A model generated the notes under the pieces. That model was not told where the DNA came from. It worked only from the letters and a program-made list of their open reading frames with translations, and did no database searches. Shown piece by piece: positions 1-9,765 of a stretch of 9,765 nt of DNA. The DNA lies in IMG/VR virus record IMGVR_UViG_2609459769_000004; one strand, written 5' to 3'. The position numbers and the translations under genes were made by a program. The DNA is from a virus. Lineage: Duplodnaviria; Heunggongvirae; Uroviricota; Caudoviricetes. Within the stretch, counting starts at the first letter, position 1, and every line of letters begins with the position of its first letter.

Positions 1-60
1 CGGTCTTGAAAACCGGCGACCCGAAAGGGTTCCAGAGTTCGAATCTCTGCGCTTCCGCCA
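1..60 (+). tRNA. serT: 3' 60 nt of tRNA-Ser (anticodon UGA); 5' part lies outside the window
   Basis: Sequence CGGTCTTGAAAACCGG...GGTTCCAGAGTTCGAATCTCTGCGCTTCCGCCA has anticodon loop CU-UGA-AA, a long variable arm, T-arm GGTTCGAATC and a 3' CCA. It matches my recollection of E. coli tRNA-Ser(UGA). Confidence 0.9.
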
Positions 61-69
61 AACAATCAA

Positions 70-102
70 GGGGTTACCAAATGGTAGCCCCTTTCTTTTT
101 TT
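70..102 (+). terminator. Rho-independent terminator of the tRNA gene
   Basis: 9-bp stem GGGGTTACC / GGTAGCCCC (one G-U pair), AAAT loop, then T-tract TTTCTTTTTTT. Confidence 0.75.
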
Positions 103-107
103 GCTCT

Positions 108-137
108 TAGTATACACTTGGTATACTAATTGGTATA
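108..137. repeat. Short repeat cluster just downstream of the tRNA: 8-bp inverted repeat plus direct repeats
   Basis: TAGTATAC (108-115) and GTATACTA (121-128) are a perfect inverted repeat with a 5-nt spacer. TTGGTATA occurs at 118-125 and 130-137, and the complement ATACCA at 152-157. Confidence 0.5.
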
Positions 138-638
138 TTTAGCTCAACACATACCAGATAGATTTTTCTCTTTATGATTTATCGCTATACCGATGAATTA
201 TGAATAACCCCAATCCATGCATGACGTGTGGTGCCTGTTGTGCATTTTCCGCGTCTCTTTTTACTGGGCAGAAGCTGACGATGCTGGCGGAAAGGTTCCG
301 GTCAGTCTCACTGAGCAAATATCTCCTTTTCATCGCTGTATGCGCGGCACCAATCAGAAAAATCCCCGATGTGTCGCTCTTGCCGGCCCCCCCCCGGAGA
401 AAACGCATATTGCTCTGTTTACAAAAACCGTCCACATGCAGGGAATTCGCAATGTCCGGCGAAAATGGCATCGTAAATGAAGCATCTAATCGCGCACGGG
501 AAAAATATGGATTTCCAAAAATCTGAATATTCTCCGCCGTGCAAAAATGCGAACAACATCACTTCACTAATCAACCTGACATGGCATACTTAGCACGCTA
601 ACTATGATAACAAACTAATACCCTAAAACTCATGGTTC

Positions 639-668
639 CGGGACTGGTCGTGGTCCCGTTTTTTTTAT
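639..668 (+). terminator. Rho-independent terminator, plus-strand orientation
   Basis: Stem CGGGAC (639-644) / GTCCCG (653-658), 8-nt loop, then T8 (659-666). It sits immediately 3' of the stop of the convergent minus-strand gene at 669. Confidence 0.65.
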
Positions 669-1364
669 TCAGCCTGCAGGCCATCCAACAACGTAACTGC
701 GGATCGCCTTCAGCTCTGTCAGCGCCTCAACCTCTGCTTTCATCTGCAACTGCCGTGTATTAATCTCCACCCCCTTCGCAAACATCGCCTGCTCTGTCGC
801 ATCCGACAGGGCTATGATGTCTGCCGCCGTCACCGGCACCACATTATTATCCCCGTCGGTCCAGGCAAAACCTTCCGGAAGACGGTTATTCTCTGCCATC
901 AGGCGTGTCATGCTTATCCTGGACAACGTCTTCTTGCCGTAATCCCAGTTCCTTCCGTTGAATTCCATCATGTATTCCATATTCTCCTGCACATCACGCC
1001 AGATATTAATCTCTTCCCTTTTCGCCGCTTTTGCCGCTTCCAGTACTGCTTCCGTGGCGACAAAGGCACTCACACTTCCGTACGTTCCTGCTGTCAGCCC
1101 AGACCACAATGCTTTTCCGTGTTCTGTATTATCCGTTTCCGTTGCAGTATACGGCAGCCATACCTGTTCCCCTTTTTCATTCACCGCGTCTTCAAACTGC
1201 ACCTCACAGTTTATCCCGCCATATTCGTTGCTGGCTGCATTTCGTACTGCAAGAATCTCTTTTCCCTTATCCACCATGACCTCCTCTATGATATGCGCTG
1301 AAATAATCCTGCCTGTCTGATACCCGGAGATGATGTCCATAGCATCGGACCACATGCACGCCAC
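669..1364 (-). CDS. Phage tail-fibre assembly protein (Tfa / P2 gpG-like); start uncertain (ATG at 1277 has SD GAGGAGG, the longest ORF starts at 1364)
   Basis: C-terminal region ...[27 protein letters not shown]...[17 protein letters not shown] resembles Tfa/gpG C-termini (PENFTW-like motif, ending in a WP motif). It lies directly downstream of the tail-fibre fragment, as in stf-tfa pairs. Confidence 0.5.
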
Positions 1365-1771
1365 GTGCCCGGTAAACGGGTCTCCCCCACATTACCGGAA
1401 GCAACCAGGGGAGTACCATTCGAAAGGCAGCATGCAGACAGTGATGACCCGGCAACAGTTGAGCCAGGGGCACGGTCCCCCGAATAATGCGTCTGGTAAT
1501 ACGCCGCAAGAACAAAAGAACCGACACCAAACAGCCCGCTGTCAGGGCTTCCGGATGGTCCCCGTGGTCCTGCCGGGCCTGCAGCTCCCGTATCCCCTTT
1601 CGGTCCCCGTGGTCCTGCCGGGCCTGCAGCTCCCGCATCCCCTTTAGGTCCCTGAGGACCTGCCGGCCCTGCAGCTCCCGTATTCGCGCCAGTTCTCCAC
1701 CTTCTGACCGTGCATACCATCAGGGTAAAAATTTGCATCCTGTACGCCTGCCGCCGCCAGCTTCTGACCAA
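1286..1771 (-). pseudogene. 5'-truncated phage tail-fibre gene fragment with collagen-like repeats and a distal C-terminal domain
   Basis: Minus-strand frame encodes [43 protein letters not shown] followed by ...[20 protein letters not shown], a tail-fibre-tip-like GTWRxxG motif. There is no plausible N-terminus: the in-frame sequence upstream is interrupted by a stop at 1784 and overlaps the preceding ORF. Confidence 0.55.
1557..1690. repeat. 45-bp tandem repeat, about 3 copies, encoding collagen-like Gly-X-Y triplets on the minus strand
   Basis: GGTCCCCGTGGTCCTGCCGGGCCTGCAGCTCCCGTATCCCCTTTC at 1557-1601, repeated at 1602-1646 with 2 substitutions, and a diverged partial copy at 1647-1690. 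Confidence 0.85.
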
Positions 1772-2039
1772 TCGCCTTTATCATTACTGGCGCAAGATAT
1801 CCGGCCCTGAATATGCGCACGGATTTTCTGCCTTCCGGCACAATTTGCAGCTTATCCAGTTCGGATAACTGCTGCTCCCCAAGCCACACAGGAGGCTCAT
1901 TATCTCCGGCCATACGCGCGTCATGTTCCTGCCATTGTTTTGCGTGTGACCAGGCATCACTACCCGCAAAAATAATGACTTCTGTTTCTTTGTGTTTTAT
2001 GCCGCGTGACTGCTGTTTTACGTTCGGTGCCAGTTTCAT
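1644..2039 (-). CDS. Hypothetical protein, 131 aa; probably the 5' fragment of a larger gene that reads into the collagen-repeat DNA
   Basis: ATGA start/stop overlap with the upstream ORF and SD AGGGG 6 nt upstream. The last ~15 codons overlap the collagen repeat in another frame and look like read-through (…[10 protein letters not shown]). Confidence 0.4.
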
Positions 2040-2335
2040 TTTTTACCCCTGAATCCGTTAATCATGGTTTTCAGCTTCTGGATGTTTGCCCGTGCCCTGG
2101 CGTTGCTGGTGGGCACGTTATGCGGCGCGGTCTGTACCAGAGAAAAATCACGCCGGAACTGATAAACAGGCATCACGCAATCATATTCGTAACCTTCACG
2201 GCGGTAGGTTACGCGCCGTTCTTCCACGCCCTTAATCATTACCGTGCCGCCGTACTGGTCGCGGTAAATATCACCGCGCGTAAATTTAGGGTGAGTGTTG
2301 CCACTGGCAGTTAAGCCAGAATATTTAAGTTTCAT
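2036..2335 (-). CDS. Small hypothetical phage protein, 99 aa
   Basis: SD GGAGA 5 nt upstream of the ATG, and ATGA overlap with the next gene. Protein MKLKYSGLTASGNTHPKF...RRVTYRREGYEYDCVMPVYQF. Confidence 0.5.
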   Translation of the reverse strand: MKLKYSGLTASGNTHPKFTRGDIYRDQYGGTVMIKGVEERRVTYRREGYEYDCVMPVYQFRRDFSLVQTAPHNVPTSNARARANIQKLKTMINGFRGKK

Positions 2336-2340
2336 TATTT

Positions 2341-2574
2341 TTATTCTCCGGTGTGCTGTTCTTTATATCTGTCGTGCAATAGATCTATTTCTTGCAGTTC
2401 CATTATTACAGGCTCAAGAAGCGTTATTAATGCCGTGGCAATTCTTGATTTTTGTTTGTCGCATTCATTGTCGCCAAGTGTTTCAAGCCATATGCGCAAT
2501 ATTTCCTGCATGTTTTCACTGTGAGAAAGTGCAAGAAATGCGCGGTCTATTGTTTCGAGGTAAATATCACGCAT
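2341..2574 (-). CDS. Small hypothetical protein, 77 aa
   Basis: SD GAGGA 9 nt upstream; start overlaps the upstream gene's stop by 8 nt. Confidence 0.45.
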   Translation of the reverse strand: MRDIYLETIDRAFLALSHSENMQEILRIWLETLGDNECDKQKSRIATALITLLEPVIMELQEIDLLHDRYKEQHTGE

Positions 2575-2800
2575 GGCTTACATCCTCAGGAAATTTTCTT
2601 CTGTAACGCGCCTCTGCCACATATTCCGCATAATCGGCGGCGATATTCAGTACATCAAGTCCCGTTGATTTATATTCTTTCGTGGAAAGTAAGAAAAAAG
2701 CCGCTCTAATAAGTTCTGGCATTGACGAAAGCGCATCAGCCGCATCATCAGGAACGCCGGAAAATTCCTGTTTCAGGGAATTAAAACGATCATCACGCAT
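2567..2800 (-). CDS. Small hypothetical protein, 77 aa (MRDDRFNSLKQEF...); alternative start at 2812
   Basis: Start lies 2 nt downstream of a G8 tract (on the coding strand) and overlaps the upstream gene's stop, suggesting translational coupling. Confidence 0.4.
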   Translation of the reverse strand: MRDDRFNSLKQEFSGVPDDAADALSSMPELIRAAFFLLSTKEYKSTGLDVLNIAADYAEYVAEARYRRKFPEDVSHA

Positions 2801-3014
2801 AACCCCCCCCATTTTCACAATCAGCAACAAGAATATTTTTAGCGTCATTCAGTGACCGCGTTGCGGTGTATCGGATACATTCCAGGGCGAATAGTGTGTA
2901 TTCTTCCCTTTCTTCCTTTTGTGCAAGCTCTGCTGTGCATTCAATATCAATAAGCGCGTGCATCAGCGTAGTGAGTGCGGCGGCGGCTGCGTCCGGTGTG
3001 GTTTTATTGCACAT
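2793..3014 (-). CDS. Small hypothetical protein, 73 aa (MCNKTTPDAAAAALTT...); the longest ORF extends to 3068
   Basis: SD GGAGGGG immediately upstream of the ATG at 3014. The C-terminus ...ENGGGYA is encoded across the G8 homopolymer. Confidence 0.4.
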   Translation of the reverse strand: MCNKTTPDAAAAALTTLMHALIDIECTAELAQKEEREEYTLFALECIRYTATRSLNDAKNILVADCENGGGYA

Positions 3015-3234
3015 GTACCCCTCCGCATTTTTTTTCGTTAGAAATAAGCGTTCTTCTTTCCTGTTCATCGATCAGGAATACGCAGACCTCACCGCTAAGG
3101 CGTTTAAGTAAGCCGATGATTGCCCCTGATTCGCTGTCGGTCATCATGCCAGGGTAATCCTCTGCCAGTGCGCAAATAACTTCGATTTGGTGGGCGCGTT
3201 CTGCTGCCTGTTGTAGTGTGATTTCCTGGCTCAT
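3004..3234 (-). CDS. Small hypothetical protein, 76 aa (MSQEITLQQAAERAHQIEV...)
   Basis: ATG overlaps the stop of the Icd-like gene (ATGA), consistent with translational coupling. Confidence 0.45.
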   Translation of the reverse strand: MSQEITLQQAAERAHQIEVICALAEDYPGMMTDSESGAIIGLLKRLSGEVCVFLIDEQERRTLISNEKKCGGVHVQ

Positions 3235-3425
3235 AAGCCTACCCCCTGGCGAATACGGGCGGCGAATACAGCAACACAACCGGACGGGCAACGGCTACGC
3301 GCTTCGCGTTCCGTCCAGGCGGTTACGTGGATGATTTGAGATTCTCCGGCACTTAGTGCCAGAAAACGCCACACAAAGGCAGTTTGTGTGTGCGCCAGAC
3401 GTGGGGTATGCTGTGTTCCAGCCAT
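3231..3425 (-). CDS. Icd-like small protein (host cell division inhibitor Icd-like family), 64 aa; first gene of the leftward operon
   Basis: SD AGGAG 8 nt upstream of the ATG. Protein MAGTQHTPRLAHTQTAFVWRFLALSAGESQIIHVTAWTEREARSRCPSGCVAVFAARIRQGVGL carries the T-E-R-E-A-R ... F-A-A-R motif I associate with Icd-like proteins of P4-like prophages (from memory). Confidence 0.5.
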   Translation of the reverse strand: MAGTQHTPRLAHTQTAFVWRFLALSAGESQIIHVTAWTEREARSRCPSGCVAVFAARIRQGVGL

Positions 3426-3612
3426 AATCGTTACTCCTGTTAACGGTTTGGTTAGACGCCCCGCTACTGCCGCAAACAGTTCGGGGCGTTGTCGTTTACA
3501 TCCTCTTACTGAGGTGTGATTTAAATTAAATTCAACTGAATCACAGGTCAAGTGTTTTTTGTGATTCTTTTTTGTGTATACTGAATCACATCTTTTGTTT
3601 AGGAGAATGCAC
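3426..3612. promoter_or_regulatory. Divergent control region between the Icd-like operon (leftward) and a regulator gene (rightward), with repeated operator-like motifs and a leader hairpin
   Basis: Four copies of GAATCACA / TGTGAT(T/C) in alternating orientation at 3515-3522, 3537-3545, 3560-3567 and 3582-3590, about 22 bp centre to centre. Candidate -10 TATACT at 3577-3582 for the plus promoter; candidate -35 TTGACC (complement of 3546-3551) for the minus promoter. Hairpin ACGCCCCG / CGGGGCGT at 3456-3489. Confidence 0.55.
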
Positions 3613-3918
3613 ATGGCAAAAAACACTATCAACGACAAATCAAAACAGATTTCAATTCGTATCCCACATGATGCTTTTGATGGCATGGAATCCGTAAAAC
3701 TGGACGGCGAAAGCAACGCCGGATTCATAGTAACCGCCATGCGCGGTGAAATCGCCCGCCGCCAGGCAGAAGGAAGCGGAGAAAACCTCCTGATTTCTTC
3801 GCTCAATGCACTGGCGCAGGTGGAAAAACTCGGAATCAAAGCCGCCGAGGAGATCGGGCAGCTCGTCACTGTCGCACGTGAAGAACTCCAGCGCCGCAAG
3901 ACTAAAGAACCAGAGTAA
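3613..3918 (+). CDS. Putative DNA-binding regulator, 101 aa, possibly ribbon-helix-helix
   Basis: SD AGGAG 7 nt upstream. N-terminus KQISIRIPHDAFDGMESVKL... fits a beta-strand-then-helix RHH pattern. Divergent from the operator array. Confidence 0.4.
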   Translation: MAKNTINDKSKQISIRIPHDAFDGMESVKLDGESNAGFIVTAMRGEIARRQAEGSGENLLISSLNALAQVEKLGIKAAEEIGQLVTVAREELQRRKTKEPE

Positions 3919-3975
3919 TCACCATCAGCGCCGTGGTGTAAGGTATTACGGCGCATTGCTATGCAGGACAACACA

Positions 3976-4149
3976 ATGACCGATAAAGAATTGACCAAAA
4001 CATTATCACCGGCACGGAAAAGACGGCGCAGAAAGATAGAGCATGAATCAGAAAGATTCGCGCCATGTGCTTTTGCCCTTGAGCAATTCCTTAAAGAGTA
4101 CAGGGAAAAGCGCTCATTGCAGGTATGGCAACGAACTGAACCAGACTGA
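3976..4149 (+). CDS. Small basic hypothetical protein, 57 aa (alternative start at 3961)
   Basis: AGGA 8 nt upstream of the ATG at 3976. Protein MTDKELTKTLSPARKRRRRKIEHESERF... Followed by the terminator at 4229. Confidence 0.35.
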   Translation: MTDKELTKTLSPARKRRRRKIEHESERFAPCAFALEQFLKEYREKRSLQVWQRTEPD

Positions 4150-4228
4150 TTGCATTGCCCACCAGCCGCAAATGTGGCATTGTTGGCAATGCTCATGCGT
4201 TGGGGATAAGGTATAGCTTGTGTCGAAT

Positions 4229-4256
4229 GGCCACCGTGACAGGTGGCCTTTGTTTT
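4229..4256 (+). terminator. Rho-independent terminator ending the rightward regulator operon
   Basis: Stem GGCCACC / GGTGGCC with GTGACA loop, followed by TTTGTTTT. Confidence 0.7.
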
Positions 4257-4541
4257 GCCCGTTATTTGGCAATTGTGGCGCTTCTTCACACAGTTGATAT
4301 AATTCCCCTGCACTGATCCAATTTTTTCGCAGCAGGTTAATTGTTCGCAAGGGCGCTCTGGTAACGGGGCGCTTTTTGTTTTTACCCACCAGCACAATAA
4401 AAATCTTTATTTTCCATTTTTATAAAATTTCATGCTTTCCGGACGACTGGTCATATGTCATTTTTTAGCAGAAGATTTTGCCTTGCTGGTGAGTAGCTTC
4501 TCGGTTAACACGATGTACCGTATAATCAGCACCGCGTGTGG

Positions 4542-5120
4542 TTACTGAATACGCTCACCAAAGTAAAACTCAGGCTGATATTCACGTATCAGCCTTTTTT
4601 CTTCTTCCTCCAGTTCACGTTTTTTGCGCTTACATGCCTGTAGCGCCCTCCCCTTCTCGCTGGCACTTATCTGGTATTGCTCTTTGCGGCGGGAAAAATC
4701 CTGTAATGCACCCCACGGGATACCATAAGCCCCCGTTTTTCTGATACCCGGTATCACATTTCTGAATACCCAGTTACTGAAACGATGGGCGAATGTGCCT
4801 TGCGTCGTTGCTTTGCGGCTACGGGCTATTAGTTTGTAGAAACCTGACTCAGAGATAATGCTCATATTCTGATTTCCTCCTGGGGTGTAAGTTAAATTTA
4901 CTCCCTTTTCATCATCATCAAGCATCTGCAACGCCGTACGCGAATTGGTCAGTTCCAGCGCAGCGCAGACATCCTTTGCAACAAACCACGGATCGCCGTT
5001 CAGATACACCACGCGAACGTTCACACCATCAAAGCGCAGAACGACCAGATCACGAAAATCACAGAATTTTTTTACATGACGTGCGTCACCCTTGCCCGTC
5101 ACGGCAATATTTTTATTCAT
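4542..5120 (-). CDS. Bro-N domain protein (antirepressor-like), 192 aa
   Basis: N-terminal ...FDGVNVRVVYLNGDPWFVAKDVCAALELTNSRTALQMLDDDEKGV matches the Bro-N signature. Charged coiled-coil-like C-terminus KRKKRELEEEEKRLIREY. SD GAGGT 9 nt upstream. Confidence 0.7.
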   Translation of the reverse strand: MNKNIAVTGKGDARHVKKFCDFRDLVVLRFDGVNVRVVYLNGDPWFVAKDVCAALELTNSRTALQMLDDDEKGVNLTYTPGGNQNMSIISESGFYKLIARSRKATTQGTFAHRFSNWVFRNVIPGIRKTGAYGIPWGALQDFSRRKEQYQISASEKGRALQACKRKKRELEEEEKRLIREYQPEFYFGERIQ

Positions 5121-5138
5121 TTCTTTTTTACCTCACAT

Positions 5139-5165
5139 ACAAAAAACCCCGCATTGCACGCGGGG
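5139..5165 (-). terminator. Rho-independent terminator after the integrase/AlpA genes
   Basis: Stem CCCCGC / GCGGGG with 7-nt loop; on the minus strand it is followed by TTTTTTGT. Confidence 0.6.
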
Positions 5166-5179
5166 TATGAAAGATATTA

Positions 5180-5383
5180 TTAGTGGGGATTGGCCTGTTC
5201 TCGTTGTTTATCTAACCATGCTTCTACATCTCTACGGTGCCAGGTATGTCGCCGTCCAATTCTGAACGGCTGAGGAAAACCATTATTCTCATCTTTCCAG
5301 AAATTGATGAATGCACTCATTGCTCCATATCGCAAGATTTTCATTACGTCTTTAGTAAATAAAATATCTTCATTGGTATTCAT
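5180..5383 (-). CDS. alpA: AlpA-family DNA-binding protein (excisionase/regulator-like), 67 aa; the longest ORF starts at 5404
   Basis: Strong SD GAGGAGG 8 nt upstream of the ATG at 5383. Sequence ...ILFTKDVMKILRYGAMSAFINFWKDENNGFPQPFRIGRRHTWHRRDVEAWL aligns in pattern with E. coli AlpA (HTH, FP, W-L tail). Confidence 0.65.
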   Translation of the reverse strand: MNTNEDILFTKDVMKILRYGAMSAFINFWKDENNGFPQPFRIGRRHTWHRRDVEAWLDKQREQANPH

Positions 5384-5396
5384 TTGCTGAACCTCC

Positions 5397-6635
5397 TCAA
5401 CCATTTACTACTCTTAAACCTTTCATACCACCGGATCTATTAATTACCCCTTTTCTCGCATCATCAAAAAAATCACCGACCCATTGCATCATGATCTTAC
5501 GCTGTTCTAGATAAGTAGTTCTATTATAAATATCTCTTATTTTATCACCACTTTTATGCGCCAATGCAGCCTCGATTACATCGGGGTTAAATCCCTCCTC
5601 ATTTAAAAGCGTACTCCACATTGAACGAAAACCATGTAACGTTACAATCCCTTTGAACTTGCTGGCAGCAATTGGGGTCTTGATAGTATTCCTCCCCATA
5701 GGCGCATCTTTTGTTCTGGAGGAAAAAAACACATAACGCCCTCTTTTTATTTCCTGCATTGTTCTGAGGATACTAATAGCCTGTGATGACAAGGGAACAA
5801 CATGTTCACGATGGCATTTCATTTTATGCGCGGGGATAATCCACAAGCCAGAATCAAAATCAATCTCTGACCACTCTGCTTTAATCGCCTCACCTGGCCT
5901 GACCATTGTCAATATCTGGAATAAAAGTGCATTATGAGCTATTTGATAGGTATGAGGCACACTATCCCACCAGCTCAGAAATTCAGGCAATCTTTCAACA
6001 GGTAGTGCTGCTAATGATTTATTTTTCTTTCCTGTGAATGCAGTCTTTATCTTAAGTAATGGATTTGTTTTCAATGCTCCACAATTTACAGCATAATTCA
6101 TAATTTCATTTAATCTTGATATTAATTTTTTTTGCAACGCATTCTTATCGGATACGGCATCCAGAGCATTAATAGCTACTGGTGCTGTAATTTTTTCTAT
6201 ACTGTACTTACCAAAGAAAGGAACAAGATATTTGTATACTTCATATTCGATATTATACAGCGTAGGTTTCCGCAATTCAGATCCCTTTTTAAAAGCGAAC
6301 CATGCATTAGCAATAGCTTCAAATGTCTGTAGATTTTTTAGTGACATCTCAATTTTACGATTTTTCTTCTCCGTCACTGGATCAACTCCACGTGCAATCA
6401 TTCGCCGAAGTTCATCACGTACTTCCCGTGCTTCCGCGAGTGAGAATTCAGGAAAACGTCCTATCGTGTATGTCTGCCGTTTCTTCGTTATCGGATGGCT
6501 ATAACGGAAACGCCACACTTTCCCACCGGCTTTACTCACATTCAGCAATAAACCGAACCCATCATAAACGGCATAGTCCTTTTCACGTGGTTTCATCCCC
6601 TTAACTTCAGTCACGGTTAATGGCTTTACCGACAT
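5397..6635 (-). CDS. int: Tyrosine site-specific integrase, P4-type, 412 aa
   Basis: N-terminal arm-binding-like region (LLLNVSKAGGKVWRFRY), C-terminal catalytic region HGFRSMWSTLL...GDKIRDIYNRTTYLEQRKIMMQW with candidate catalytic Tyr. SD GAGGG upstream. Confidence 0.9.
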   Translation of the reverse strand: MSVKPLTVTEVKGMKPREKDYAVYDGFGLLLNVSKAGGKVWRFRYSHPITKKRQTYTIGRFPEFSLAEAREVRDELRRMIARGVDPVTEKKNRKIEMSLKNLQTFEAIANAWFAFKKGSELRKPTLYNIEYEVYKYLVPFFGKYSIEKITAPVAINALDAVSDKNALQKKLISRLNEIMNYAVNCGALKTNPLLKIKTAFTGKKNKSLAALPVERLPEFLSWWDSVPHTYQIAHNALLFQILTMVRPGEAIKAEWSEIDFDSGLWIIPAHKMKCHREHVVPLSSQAISILRTMQEIKRGRYVFFSSRTKDAPMGRNTIKTPIAASKFKGIVTLHGFRSMWSTLLNEEGFNPDVIEAALAHKSGDKIRDIYNRTTYLEQRKIMMQWVGDFFDDARKGVINRSGGMKGLRVVNG

Positions 6636-6796
6636 CTATCGCCCTCATTTTTTAGTCCGTCATGTAGTCCATTCAAGCCAATAACAAGCGATAAACTAAC
6701 TCATTATCAAGCAAAGAGAGGAAACTCATAAAATCACAACTCATTGAAAAGACTATGAAACGACACCAGAACATACAAACAGGTAAGAAATGTACC
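6636..6796. promoter_or_regulatory. AT-rich integrase-upstream region with three direct AACTCAT repeats; candidate int promoter / attachment-arm region and junction with the truncated terminase
   Basis: AACTCAT(T/A) at 6698-6705, 6723-6730 and 6738-6746. The region lies between the integrase start (6635) and the premature end of the terminase ORF (6797). Confidence 0.3.
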
Positions 6797-7804
6797 CTAC
6801 ATCCAGAATGACGCAATCCGGGAATTTCGTGGCGTTCCGGTGATACTGCCGTCCGCCACCGCCCGTTCACCTTCACGAAGCCAGATCCCTTTGTTATTCA
6901 GTTCGCGTTTCTGCTCAGGGGCAATCAGCCCGCGACAATGCGGACACATCAGACGGGCAGCCTGACCGGCAGCCACAAAATCCGGGTTATTCCGGTATCC
7001 GGTCATGTTATCCATCACCGGCTGAAAATATTCCCCGCAGTGCGGACACGGCCAGTACCACCGGCGGCGGTCTCCCCGGTTATACAGTGACAGGATCCCC
7101 GTTGTTGGCGGTGCCTCATGTGCGCCGCCACAGCGCCATTTGGTGTCAGTGATATCCCGCCCCGGCGAACTCTCGACCAGGGTCATCCCCGAGGACATAA
7201 AGGTGGTGGTACGCTTTGATGCCAGGGTGAAGGCATCCCCTTCCCCGTCCACGTTTTCAGGGAAACGGTCATAATCCGTCAGCGCCACACGACGGTAATC
7301 CGAAGAAGAAAATACAGTGATCGACGGCCAGCCAATCTTCAGGAAGGAGCCGTCAAGAAACATTTTATCGTGGACGTTGTTGTCATTACGGGAAGGACTG
7401 AGGCGCTTGCTGACCTCCGGACTGTGGCGAAACGTTCTGGAAAGACGCGTTCTGGAATGCTCACGCGCCTTCGTCTCAGTCATCTGCACCACCAGCATAT
7501 CCGCCGGATCACAGATGATGCCGTACACAATCCAGCCATCAATCAGCCCTTCGGTTTTCCCGGTTCGCGCAGGTCCCACAAACACCACCGCGTCATATTC
7601 ACGGGCTGATAATGTATTAATGGGGTCAATCATATAGGGCGTCAGCGATGACTCCCACGGACCGGAAGTATTGGCTCCCCGTGGTACCCGCATATAACGC
7701 CTGATGGCTTCCGCTACTGGTAACCGGCTGGGTGGGCGAAACAGCGAGGCCACTTCGCGCCAGATATCGGATGCGCGGCTATGGCTCTCGTTCACCTGAT
7801 TCAC
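6797..7804 (-). pseudogene. Terminase large subunit (lambda gpA-like), N-terminal 335 aa only; truncated
   Basis: SLFRPP...VAEAIRRY, Walker-A-like GPARTGKTE, CPHCGEY...CPHC and NKGIWLREG parallel lambda gpA. Lambda gpA is about 640 aa; here the ORF ends at ...ASFWM* with no continuation. Confidence 0.85.
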
Positions 7805-8277
7805 ATATCGGCCTCATCACAACAGTCAATGACTGCCTTTTCCAGTGTATCGCGGATCTCATCAACCACAATCTGTACTTCATTCAGTTGTGATGCGGTC
7901 CACCCCCTGTCCCTCTCCAGCCGGTCAGGCCAGGTTTCCAGTACCTGAACTATCGCTTTCACCACGACAGAAAAGGACCGCCTGACATCACTGACTGGCA
8001 CAAGCTGAACAGTTTCATGCTGAAATTTAAGACGCTCGCGCTCGGACTGATACCATGCCTTCCGATCATGTGGGTTCATCTCTTCATCTTCGGAAGCCGG
8101 TGGTTTTTCCAGCAACGAAATAATCAAATCCGTCAGGAGATACATTTTTTTCTTTTCATTACTGCCTGGTGCAAGAGGAACATCCGCCATTCTGGCGGCA
8201 ACAGTCTGCCGGTGCAGACCTGAAAGGGCTGCCAGTTGATTAATATTTAACTTCATATTTTTCAGCTCGCCGTCCAT
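7801..8277 (-). CDS. Terminase small subunit (lambda Nu1-like), 158 aa
   Basis: N-terminal HTH-like LNINQLAALSGLHRQTVAARMAD parallels the start of lambda Nu1. SD GGAGGG 7 nt upstream. Stop overlaps the TerL start (ATGA). Start is about 187 bp from the putative cosN, as in lambda. Confidence 0.85.
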   Translation of the reverse strand: MDGELKNMKLNINQLAALSGLHRQTVAARMADVPLAPGSNEKKKMYLLTDLIISLLEKPPASEDEEMNPHDRKAWYQSERERLKFQHETVQLVPVSDVRRSFSVVVKAIVQVLETWPDRLERDRGWTASQLNEVQIVVDEIRDTLEKAVIDCCDEADM

Positions 8278-8289
8278 TCACATCCCTCC

Positions 8290-8490
8290 ACATAAACCGC
8301 TGAACAAAAGTGGCTCTTTTTTTGTAAAGAAATGCCGCCATATAAAGATGTCGAACAAAAATCAACCACAATCATCATCTTTTTAATGCTAAATACATTA
8401 AAAACAACAAGTTACGCTAATGATGATGATGACGATAAAATCACAAAAATGCGCCTTTTTCCGCGCCGTCCGCCCCGTGTTCAGGCCCAC
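8290..8490 (-). other. Lambda-like cos site region (cosN about 8464-8475, cosB towards Nu1)
   Basis: Minus-strand GGGCGGACGGCG resembles the lambda cohesive end GGGCGGCGACCT. Downstream CGTCAT...AACTTGTTGTTTTTAATGTATTTA parallels lambda CGTCATAACTTAATGTTTTTATTTA (recalled from memory). No ORF of 60 aa or more on the minus strand in this interval. Confidence 0.5.
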
Positions 8491-8729
8491 CCCACCAGGA
8501 GGACCCGCAAAAACGATAATGGTTATCATTTTCAATGTAGTCCGGTTTCTTCCACCATCGCACCGGACAGGCGACTATGAGGGGACAACGCCGCGCTCCG
8601 TTAACGCGGTAAACCCCGGTGTGTATCGTTTTTGATTATCCCCGCACACTCGCGCAGAGGAGTCTCCCTGTCGGGCTGCGGTCTCTGTTAATGAGGGAAT
8701 ACAGCGACGATACGGCGCATCAACAAAAC

Positions 8730-9197
8730 TTATTTCAGGCACTGAGTACGGATATATTCCTGCGCCCCTTCCAGTTGCTTGTGCATCGTCATCAGCCGCT
8801 CTCTGAGGGTGAAATAATCCCGTTCAGCGGTGTCTGCCAGTCGGGGGCCGGTTGCATTATCCACGCGGGCGGTGCCGGTGGCTTCACGCACGGGACCTGG
8901 ACAGGTGGCGTTGATACGCAGGCGCTTACGACCAGCGGCAACGTCAGCGCGAAGAGTTTCATTTTCAGCTCTCGCATCGGCTAATTCCCTCGAGTATTTT
9001 GCATCGAGCGCAGCAACATCACGCTGACGCATCTGCATGTCAGTAATTGCCGCGTTCGCCAGCTTCAGTTCTCTGACATTTTTGTCGCGCTGGGCTTTGT
9101 AGGTAATGGCGTTATCACGGTAATGATTCAGCCCCAGACTAAGCGCACCACAGGCCACCAGCATGACAATAATCACCACACACAGAACACGGTTCAT
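8730..9197 (-). CDS. Rz: Rz i-spanin, 155 aa
   Basis: [67 protein letters not shown]... is near-identical in pattern to lambda Rz, with an N-terminal TM segment. Confidence 0.9.
8792..8977 (-). CDS. Rz1: Rz1 o-spanin lipoprotein, 61 aa, embedded in the +1 frame of Rz
   Basis: [61 protein letters not shown] has a lipobox LVVSAC and proline-rich core matching lambda Rz1. Confidence 0.85.
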
Positions 9198-9198
9198 A

Positions 9199-9285
9199 TC
9201 ACCACCAACGGATTGCCCAGACCAGAACAGCAATGGCCACAATACGAATGGCAAATGCCATTGCCCGAATAAGTTCAGCACTCAT
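9199..9285 (-). CDS. Candidate 28-aa hydrophobic peptide immediately upstream of Rz
   Basis: ATG at 9285; [28 protein letters not shown]; stop TGA is 1 nt before the Rz ATG. No recognisable SD, so this may not be expressed. Confidence 0.2.
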
Positions 9286-9296
9286 CTTTTTAAAGT

Positions 9297-9547
9297 TCAC
9301 GATTTCAGCGCAATGACCAGTTTTGCCAGCCCATATAGCATCGGAGACACAGCAATACCAACAGCCACCCACTTAATAGCAAAAGCCAGCGCTCTGCTGA
9401 TGTCATCAGTCACTGTCACCCCAGCAGCCCCGACGAAGACAACATCACCCAGGCGAGGGACAGAAAAAGAGCAACCAGCATTAGTGAAAATGAAATACCG
9501 ACAATCACACACAGGACCTTTGCCGGCGTTATGAGTTTGTCTGACAT
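9297..9547 (-). pseudogene. Candidate holin-like small membrane protein, apparently frameshifted (two frames, two TM segments)
   Basis: Frame A: MSDKLITPAKVLCVIVGISFSLMLVALFLSLAWVMLSSSGLLG* (9547-9416). A second frame continues ...VTVTDDISRALAFAIKWVAVGIAVSPMLYGLAKLVIALKS* (to 9297). It sits in the position where lambdoid phages carry holin/endolysin genes. Confidence 0.3.
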
Positions 9548-9549
9548 AG

Positions 9550-9645
9550 CTACCCCTTAATTGCCACAATTAACTGGGATACTACCCATAAAAAAGGGAT
9601 GCTCCAGACCAGCAAAAATTTCCAGTTTGGTAATTGACTAATCAT
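9550..9645 (-). CDS. Candidate 31-aa hydrophobic peptide
   Basis: SD AGGGAG 7 nt upstream of the ATG at 9645. MISQLPNWKFLLVWSIPFLWVVSQLIVAIKG, with the stop 2 nt before the next ATG. Confidence 0.3.
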   Translation of the reverse strand: MISQLPNWKFLLVWSIPFLWVVSQLIVAIKG

Positions 9646-9716
9646 GAGTCGCAACTCCCTAATCAGTTTGCTAAAATCAATCAAGGCAGCCTCCCATAGC
9701 TTACTGCCATAAAAAC

Positions 9717-9760
9717 AAAACCCCGCTTGCTGCCAACAAACGGGGTTTTTACTTTTATTC
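9717..9760. terminator. Hairpin with flanking T/A tracts; likely bidirectional intrinsic terminator
   Basis: AAAACCCCG ... CGGGGTTTTT with an imperfect extended stem, followed by TTTTTACTTTTATT on the plus strand and preceded by AAAAACAAAA. Confidence 0.6.
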
Positions 9761-9765
9761 ACTTA

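Follow-up and report, generated by a model that had tools for sequence, protein, structure and literature searches.

The closest described counterparts of the locus analyzed here are the helper-embedded phage-inducible chromosomal islands (HE-PICIs), whose founder is Eco567.11capE (11capE; Tommasini, Mageeney & Williams 2023, PMC10111431). In that work 491 elements were described, which occupy 14 sites spread over nine lambda-cognate late genes and run in the direction of the late operon. They are arranged in four zones (Integration, Bro, Replication and Late) and carry captured helper late genes. Excision of 11capE after composite excision and replication was demonstrated experimentally, and many helpers were found to be truncated, leaving "abandoned" HE-PICIs. 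The set was recovered with an integrase cutoff of at least 400 bits, and the authors grant that the single clade obtained partly reflects the discovery method. The present locus is a stretch of 9,765 nucleotides of viral DNA (IMG/VR record IMGVR_UViG_2609459769_000004), called the window throughout. Comparison with related loci (designated by L numbers) makes it very probable that positions 1680-6799 of the window are the integrase-proximal half of a PICI-type satellite of about 10.4 kb, which integrated in the terminase gene terL of a lambdoid prophage at serT and was then cut by a deletion.

An earlier annotation made from the sequence alone, called here the original prediction, had recognized a satellite-type module at 1644-6796. 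These limits needed a small correction, as the element DNA extends from a deletion junction at 1680-1683 to an attachment (att) core at 6800-6805, and the stop codon of terL (TAG, 6797-6799) is itself element DNA. The features of the window are listed in Table 1.

Insertion at a TGGATG core in terL

The two lambdoid flanks of the element were compared with the serT prophage of E. coli O111:H21 strain 15A, in which terL is intact. Window 6795-9765 is 99.7% identical to this prophage and window 1-1683 is 99.1% identical to it, which argues that the flanks are two sides of one serT prophage. The terL open reading frame (ORF) of the window ends ...SFWM-stop, with the element-supplied TAG directly after Met335; intact homologues go on FWMEGPAAAF. 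In intact homologues of 707 amino acids (aa), GpA_ATPase occupies residues 45-308 and GpA_nuclease residues 330-648, so that the split falls at the start of GpA_nuclease, just past the ATPase domain.

The att sites were compared using attL from the window, L001, L002 and L005, attR from L001, L002 and L005, and the intact attB of L004. The insertion point falls after codon 335 of the GpA-type terL, and its core is TGGATG. The attB of the intact gene reads CATTCTGGATGGAGGGG, the attL of the window reads CATTCTGGATG followed by TAGGGTAC, the attR of L001 reads TTCTTGGATGGAGGGG, and the satellite attP junction reads …TTCTTGGATGTAGGGTAC…. Joining the flanks in silico rebuilt ...SFWMEGPAAAF..., and the empty sites L004 and L098 read likewise. 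The integrase gene, the AlpA-like gene and the primase gene lie on the strand of terL, and the element is placed between terL codon 335 and, in relatives, codon 336. The window holds attL only and is without attR. The right-hand flank is, on this comparison, the element's own specific integration target within terL.

In the attP reconstructed from L001 5663-6045 and window 6636-6799, a 10-bp repeat, TTTATCGCTT, occurs twice in the same orientation, once about 102 bp upstream of the core and once about 107 bp downstream of it. The repeat is a candidate arm-type integrase site, the chance of a 10-bp repeat in such a span being roughly 0.1-0.2.

Full-length relatives

Six full-length relatives from complete E. 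coli genomes were examined (L001, L002, L005, L006, L089 and L090), each of them located between a terL N-terminal fragment and a fragment annotated as "gpA endonuclease, missing N-terminus". The split point agreed to the base in the window and four relatives with differing terL, and two further relatives are annotated with the same split terL fragments. The helper prophages differ among the six, and their integrase-plus-arm segments are 92.6-100% identical to that of the window. The Integration zone (Int with AlpA/HTH_17) and the Bro, Replication and Late zones are all complete in every relative; the window ends 120 codons into the Replication zone. The element size of about 10.4 kb is that of L001, the only relative measured.

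In RM10466 (L001, in a Stx2c prophage) and in O157:H7 Z1835, the gene order is terL N-fragment, integrase, helix-turn-helix (HTH) regulator, Bro-N, YlcI, Icd-like, small ORFs, DUF4222 and primase (followed in Z1835 by a single-stranded DNA-binding protein, SSB), then a fusion of a ClpP-like protease with a major capsid protein, a 93-aa ORF and "terminase gpA endonuclease subunit, missing N-terminus". Downstream of the gpA fragment lie the helper portal gene and the helper's own ClpP-capsid fusion, to which the satellite fusion (CLP_protease and Phage_capsid_4) is 51% identical. In L005 (6398-7807) and L006 (9998-11398) a RepA-family helicase (AAA_25) stands in place of the D5-type primase, with nearly identical integrase, HTH and DUF4222 genes, and this is replication-module swapping within one satellite lineage. 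An additional DUF1441 small-terminase-like gene is present in the late zones of L089 (2240-2725) and L090 (1772-2257), and L090 also carries tail-assembly gene fragments (2568-3268), consistent with capture of helper late genes.

By blastn, the presumed cos region of the window (8318-8513) matched L001 at 6360-6555 and 9001-9093 and L002 at 3828-4023 and 6468-6560, all within the satellites. Each satellite has a full-length copy (about 85% identity) and a shorter one (83-88%), and the two flank the capsid fusion gene. The presence of these copies implies cos-type packaging of the satellite by helper terminase. The original prediction had considered a satellite devoid of replication and capsid genes by design; the relatives carry a primase or RepA, cos copies and the ClpP-capsid fusion, which points instead to loss of these genes by deletion. 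It had also foreseen that full-length relatives might show the locus to be an ordinary truncated copy, and this is essentially what was found.

Of 5426 complete E. coli genomes, 83-90 (about 1.5%) contained the integrase, and the matches listed were largely of Shiga-toxigenic serotypes (O157:H7, O121:H19, O145:H28, O111 and O22:H8). Megablast of the module against 50,697 phage records gave no match, so that the element is in no sequenced virion or phage record among them. In a set of one genome per species the best integrase relatives did not exceed 40% identity (Vibrio, Colwellia, Pasteurellaceae and others), with no close ones; none of them adjoined terL, and some adjoined primase genes. The species scan thus gave no terL-targeting member outside E. 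coli and no clue to the origin of the lineage. Insertion in terL is not described in two papers on O157 prophages (PMC2669165, PMC8743559).

Two of the relatives are of interest for their setting. The satellite of L001 (NZ_CP028381.1 1891508-1919147, strain RM10466) splits the terL of a prophage with the Stx2c A and B subunit genes, and this terL is annotated as two pseudogene fragments. Strain 15A holds both states of the site: its serT prophage has an empty terL attB (L098), and another prophage about 800 kb away has an occupied terL (L006). The integrase-plus-arm segment of the latter satellite is 100% identical to that of the window.

Truncation of the satellite replication gene

The 131-aa ORF had originally been read as the 5' fragment of a larger gene continuing into unrelated collagen-repeat DNA, and this was borne out. 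Over residues 1-120 it is identical at 119 of 120 positions to the corresponding first 120 residues of a "DNA primase family protein" of 584 aa from E. coli RM10466 (L001 9440-11194), and its PHROG DNA primase match is confined to the same residues. The last 11 codons lie in collagen-repeat tail-fiber DNA of the helper. The D5_N, DUF5906 and Pox_D5 domains of the full 584-aa protein lie from residue 153 onward; none of them survives in the window, and nothing catalytic is left. In agreement with the original prediction, the window contains no intact primase or helicase gene.

Element homology begins at window 1680 and tail-fiber homology runs up to 1683. The GTAT common to the primase and tail-fiber genes at the exact junction is a signature of illegitimate deletion. 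In the serT prophage of strain 15A (L007) the two window breakpoints lie about 18.5 kb apart; this helper DNA, together with the approximately 5.2 kb of satellite beyond primase codon 120 in L001, would give a deletion of about 23.6 kb.

The junction was found in none of 5426 complete E. coli genomes. Each of the seven contigs retrieved by means of the chimeric ORF has it, and the exact chimeric ORF occurs on at least 15 contigs. The window itself is contig JNRE01000065.1 (GCA_000704525.1), and three other NCBI assemblies have contigs that match it at 99.98-100% identity. The occurrence of the ORF on at least 15 contigs and of a near-identical window in four assemblies indicates that the junction is not an assembly artifact. 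The relic is real and clonally inherited, and its near-identity among assemblies is no evidence of long-term selection.

The proposed history would begin with a lambdoid prophage resident at the tRNA-Ser gene serT. A satellite would then have integrated site-specifically at TGGATG in terL, co-oriented with the late operon, and one illegitimate deletion would subsequently have joined the satellite replicase to the tail-fiber gene. The deletion is predicted to have removed from the satellite the replicase from codon 121, any replication accessory genes (SSB in some relatives), the cos copies, the capsid late zone and attR, and from the helper the terL nuclease half and every head and tail gene as far as the last ~133 tail-fiber codons.

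In intact relatives, the split of terL at the ATPase/nuclease boundary would leave the helper without a complete terminase until the satellite is removed by its integrase and the AlpA-like excisionase. Excision would rebuild terL exactly, and the satellite, with its own cos copies, its ClpP-capsid fusion and in some cases a DUF1441 small terminase, would be packaged by the restored helper terminase. The absence of attR would render the window copy unable to excise, and the deletion of the nuclease half would prevent restoration of helper terL. The window copy is, as far as its gene content allows prediction, an immobile relic unable to excise, replicate or be packaged.

Comparison with described PICIs

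The family to which the window belongs resembles 11capE in its gene order (int-alpA-bro-ylcI-icd-DUF4222-pri-ssb-capsid), in the rebuilding of the interrupted gene upon excision and in a late zone with a capsid gene homologous to that of the helper, and the 11capE primase is 43% identical to that of L001. The two differ in their target. The window family uses a GpA-type terL at the ATPase/nuclease boundary, whereas the HE-PICI sites in gene A are in Terminase_1-type terL at positions 132 and 245/246. Neither "GpA" nor the window att sequence was found in the supplementary files of PMC10111431, that is, in the complete attL and attR files and the portion of the spreadsheet covered. The helper-embedded configuration has been known since 2023; the GpA terL site and this integrase, which are absent from the published catalogue, are modestly new.

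Several observations weigh against the proposed history or against its assimilation to the HE-PICIs. The integrase of the window has 25% identity (87 bits) to that of 11capE, far under the 400-bit cutoff, and would by this measure lie outside the published clade. The attP sites of HE-PICIs carry a motif, a doubled TGTATTGC (tgTGTATTGCantgTGTATTGCa), on both sides of the attP center, at about 81 bp upstream of it and about 132 bp downstream (PMC10111431); in a search covering the window, the doubled motif had no match at up to three mismatches, and single-copy matches were at chance level. The shared core is 6 bp, as against identity blocks of 8-10 bp in catalogued HE-PICIs. The mechanism, including the timing of excision, packaging and the function of the capsid fusion, is carried over by analogy from 11capE, for which excision was shown and particles were not recovered. 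The approximately 5.2 kb of lost satellite DNA is an estimate that takes L001 as a proxy in a family whose late zones vary. Finally, a single deletion is the simplest history, and two or more successive events could also have produced the junction.

The lineage looks like an additional case of helper embedding, probably one of independent origin. The fuller proposal of a second, independently evolved helper-embedded lineage, distinguished by a P4-type integrase 25% identical to the HE-PICI clade, by lack of the attP motif where tested and by an uncatalogued GpA terL site, is put forward tentatively, as falling a little short of an even chance.

Classical PICIs of Gram-negative bacteria (EcCICFT073 and CP-933C/Sp7; PMC6092414, PMC3378721) share with the window family a unidirectional int-alpA-...-pri arrangement in about 10-15 kb, lambdoid helpers for packaging of the cos type, and RgdR-type regulators of the enterocyte effacement locus (LEE). 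Indeed, integrase, an alpA-type regulator and a pri or rep gene run in one direction in all six relatives, and the window keeps the integrase gene, the alpA-like gene and the primase fragment. However, the att sites of classical PICIs are chromosomal and are never those of prophages, and these elements were defined by a lack of structural genes, whereas the window lineage resides in a prophage gene and its intact members have a capsid gene. Late genes in PICIs were accepted by later work (PMC10111431). Capsid-forming PICIs (cf-PICIs, for example EcCIEDL933; 10.1101/2022.09.08.507074) are described as encoding every protein that making their own capsids and packaging their DNA requires. The intact relatives likewise encode a major capsid protein and protease of their own, but they have only the ClpP-capsid fusion, accompanied in some by a DUF1441 small terminase, and the window has none of these.

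Alternative explanations

The original prediction described the module as P4-like and decayed. That it is a satellite and decayed is supported by the relatives and the deletion; the likeness to P4 was not sustained. A member of the P4 family that had lost alpha, psu, delta and sid would account for the integrase, a P4-type enzyme with 33.6% identity to P4 Int (204 bits), for the Vis/AlpA-like gene that follows it, and for the replicase of the relatives, whose C-terminal, D5-type helicase part is 40-50% identical to P4 alpha over residues ~304-776. The N-terminal primase part of alpha was not matched by the replicase of the relatives, and the 120 replicase residues of the window gave no match to alpha. 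The hallmark genes are missing from the relatives as well as from the window: tblastn (E<=0.01) with psu, delta, sid, epsilon, cI, cII, gop and beta detected none of them in the window, confirming the original prediction as to psu, delta and sid, nor in full-length L001, L002 and L006. A scan of the window with Rfam (E<=1) revealed no C4 or isrK RNA, only two sub-threshold, unrelated matches. P4 has a P2-like helper and a tRNA-Leu site, whereas the apparent helper of the window family is lambdoid and its site lies in a phage gene; gene order and late zone fit Gram-negative PICIs and HE-PICIs. Descent from the P4 family is therefore considered very unlikely.

The original prediction also allowed that the module is a compact, functional satellite without its own replicase and capsid genes, using the adjacent helper cos and terminase in cis. 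The integrase, AlpA-like, Bro-N and regulator genes are indeed intact, and the presumed helper cos and the DUF1441 gene are only about 1.5 kb away. Nevertheless, without attR the integrase lacks its partner site for excision, the replicase is cut ahead of all its domains, the element's own cos copies are gone, and the adjacent terL has lost its nuclease half along with the helper head and tail genes. The illegitimate GTAT join lies inside two unrelated genes, and all six relatives possess the genes that are missing. A functional minimal element is accordingly an even more improbable explanation.

A neighboring chromosomal PICI could have been fused to the lambdoid prophage by deletions on both sides, with no specific integration in terL. 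In favor of such a chance fusion, O157 Sp7/CP-933C has been described as a lambdoid/P4-like chimera, and the left junction of the window is indeed a deletion. The right junction, however, falls on exactly the same base in the window as in four relatives with differing terL, two more are annotated with the same split, the terL halves rebuild an intact gene, and L004 and L098 provide an empty attB. Fusion by chance is scarcely credible in the face of this agreement. An assembly chimera is conceivable, since the window makes up the whole of a 9765-bp draft contig (JNRE01000065.1) with repeats at its ends. Its probability is negligible, as the same sequence, at 99.98-100% identity, lies within contigs of 78-281 kb from other assemblies and also in a Logan assembly that comes from an independent sequencing run.

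Significance of the terL-targeting lineage

The window itself is of very little import, since its odd gene content is fully explained by the proposed integration of a PICI-type satellite and its deletion. The lineage is of wider concern. Helper embedding would extend past the single integrase clade of 2023, which would lend weight to the idea that selection has repeatedly favored late genes of prophages as landing sites for satellites. Members of the lineage split terL in prophages of Shiga-toxigenic E. coli, including a Stx2c prophage, and a "pseudogenized" terL could be scored as defective even though excision would restore the gene. Such restoration bears on predictions of the inducibility and transfer of Shiga toxin (Stx) phages. 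If a second helper-embedded lineage does exist, satellite excision would be a packaging checkpoint for some Shiga-toxin phages, and relics would leave RgdR-type virulence regulators in the chromosome.

Genes retained in the remnant and the flanking prophage

The gene inventory of the original prediction (integrase, AlpA, Bro-N, a regulator and an Icd-like operon) was confirmed in full by Pfam, NCBIfam and PHROG matches and by homologues in the relatives. The relevant genes lie on the minus strand, with the exception of the divergent YlcI/YnfO unit.

Table 1. Features of the window, with positions numbered from its first nucleotide
Feature	Position	Strand	Evidence
3' part of tRNA-Ser (serT), by the hya operon; chromosomal edge of helper prophage	1-60	+	identity to strain 15A (L007 tRNA-Ser 5973-6060, hyaA beyond)
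DUF4376 protein of helper prophage, tail-fiber-associated, intact	669-1277	-	Pfam DUF4376; corresponds to coding sequence L007 6668-7276
Collagen-repeat tail-fiber gene of helper, 3' ~133 codons; distal edge of deletion	1286-1683	-	Pfam Collagen
Truncated satellite replication gene, 131-aa ORF: codons 1-120 of primase-family gene, 11 out-of-context codons and stop	1644-2039	-	
Deletion junction, GTAT microhomology common to primase and tail-fiber genes	1680-1683		three-way comparison of window, L001 and L007
RgdR-like DUF4222 protein, 99 aa, intact	2036-2335	-	Pfam DUF4222, 85.7 bits; L001 homologue 97% identical
Four small ORFs of the Icd-like operon	2341-2574, 2567-2800, 2793-3014, 3004-3234	-	PHROGs of unknown function
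Icd-like gene, 64 aa, first of leftward operon	3231-3425	-	PHROG "transcriptional repressor" families
YlcI/YnfO family gene, divergent unit	3613-3918	+	NCBIfam YlcI_YnfO_N, 65 bits
62-aa ORF, divergent unit with YlcI/YnfO	3961-4149	+	PHROG match
Terminator-like GC-rich hairpin and U-run, downstream of ylcI/62-aa unit	4212-4254	+	sub-threshold isrD match, 22.9 bits against gathering score 37
Bro-N domain protein (Bro zone)	4542-5120	-	Pfam Bro-N, 72 bits; L001 homologue 89% identical
AlpA/Vis-type HTH protein, 67 aa, presumed excisionase and regulator	5180-5383	-	weak HTH_17; PHROG "excisionase and transcriptional regulator"
Tyrosine integrase, 412 aa, intact	5397-6635	-	Pfam Arm-DNA-bind_3, Phage_int_M, Phage_integrase
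attL: integrase-proximal arm (6636-6799) and TGGATG crossover core (6800-6805)	6636-6805	-	attL/attR/attB comparison
Helper terL, N-terminal 335 codons only; ATPase domain, nuclease half gone	6797-7804	-	Pfam GpA_ATPase
Helper DUF1441 protein in small-terminase (Nu1) position, immediately upstream of terL	7801-8277	-	Pfam DUF1441, 165 bits
Non-coding region	about 8278-8729		
Presumed helper cos region, between Rz and DUF1441 gene	8318-8513	-	role inferred from position
Helper Rz spanin gene with embedded Rz1-like lipoprotein ORF (8792-8977); lambdoid lysis genes	8730-9281	-	Pfam Phage_lysis; ORF list

The integrase is 99.3% identical to that of L001, and the 67-aa HTH protein is 100% identical to the WP_001095275-type HTH regulators of the relatives. 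The Icd-like gene has 81% identity to an L001 protein named "host cell division inhibitor Icd-like" by the NCBI Prokaryotic Genome Annotation Pipeline (PGAP). The four small ORFs of its operon have 68-99% identity to L001 hypothetical proteins, with a frame change near the 3' end of ORF 2793-3014 relative to its 80-aa L001 counterpart; Pfam and NCBIfam gave mostly no match for the small ORFs. The hairpin downstream of the ylcI unit is probably an intrinsic terminator.

The DUF4222 protein contains RGD at residues 20-22. RgdR/ECs1581, carried on the PICI-like CP-933C/Sp7, belongs to a family reported to control motility and LEE type III secretion (PMC3378721), and the 99-aa protein matches its description in length, RGD position and genomic context, a likeness of description and not of alignment. 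The diffusible products of the remnant (Int and the AlpA-like, Bro-N, YlcI, Icd-like and RgdR-like proteins) could still act in trans and may have a regulatory role.

A 388-aa open frame on the minus strand (3231-4397) runs antisense to ylcI and the 62-aa ORF, and has homologues for its last 64 codons (the Icd-like gene) only. The equivalent upstream part of L001 is a PGAP pseudogene, "Icd-like, missing C-terminus". As no Pfam match was obtained upstream of the Icd-like part, the 388-aa frame was rejected as a real gene, and its extension is probably a chance open frame or a leftover of a longer Bro/Icd gene.

On the left-hand side of the window, serT is cut by the window end, and ARAGORN reported no tRNA in the window. 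The tail-fiber fragment is the 3' end of a 497-codon "prophage tail fiber N-terminal domain" gene (L007 7285-8778), and its match ends at window 1683. The collagen-like part at 1557-1683 aligns with L007 7601-7842 in several shifted registers, being an internally repetitive array coding for Gly-X-Y. A second contig of the assembly that contains the window (L096, JNRE01000094.1) is 100% identical to window 1-2039 and continues past window position 1 into a 300-aa integrase gene and a DUF4224 gene, and not into hyaA, which suggests a tandem prophage at serT or a redundant assembly of a repeat.

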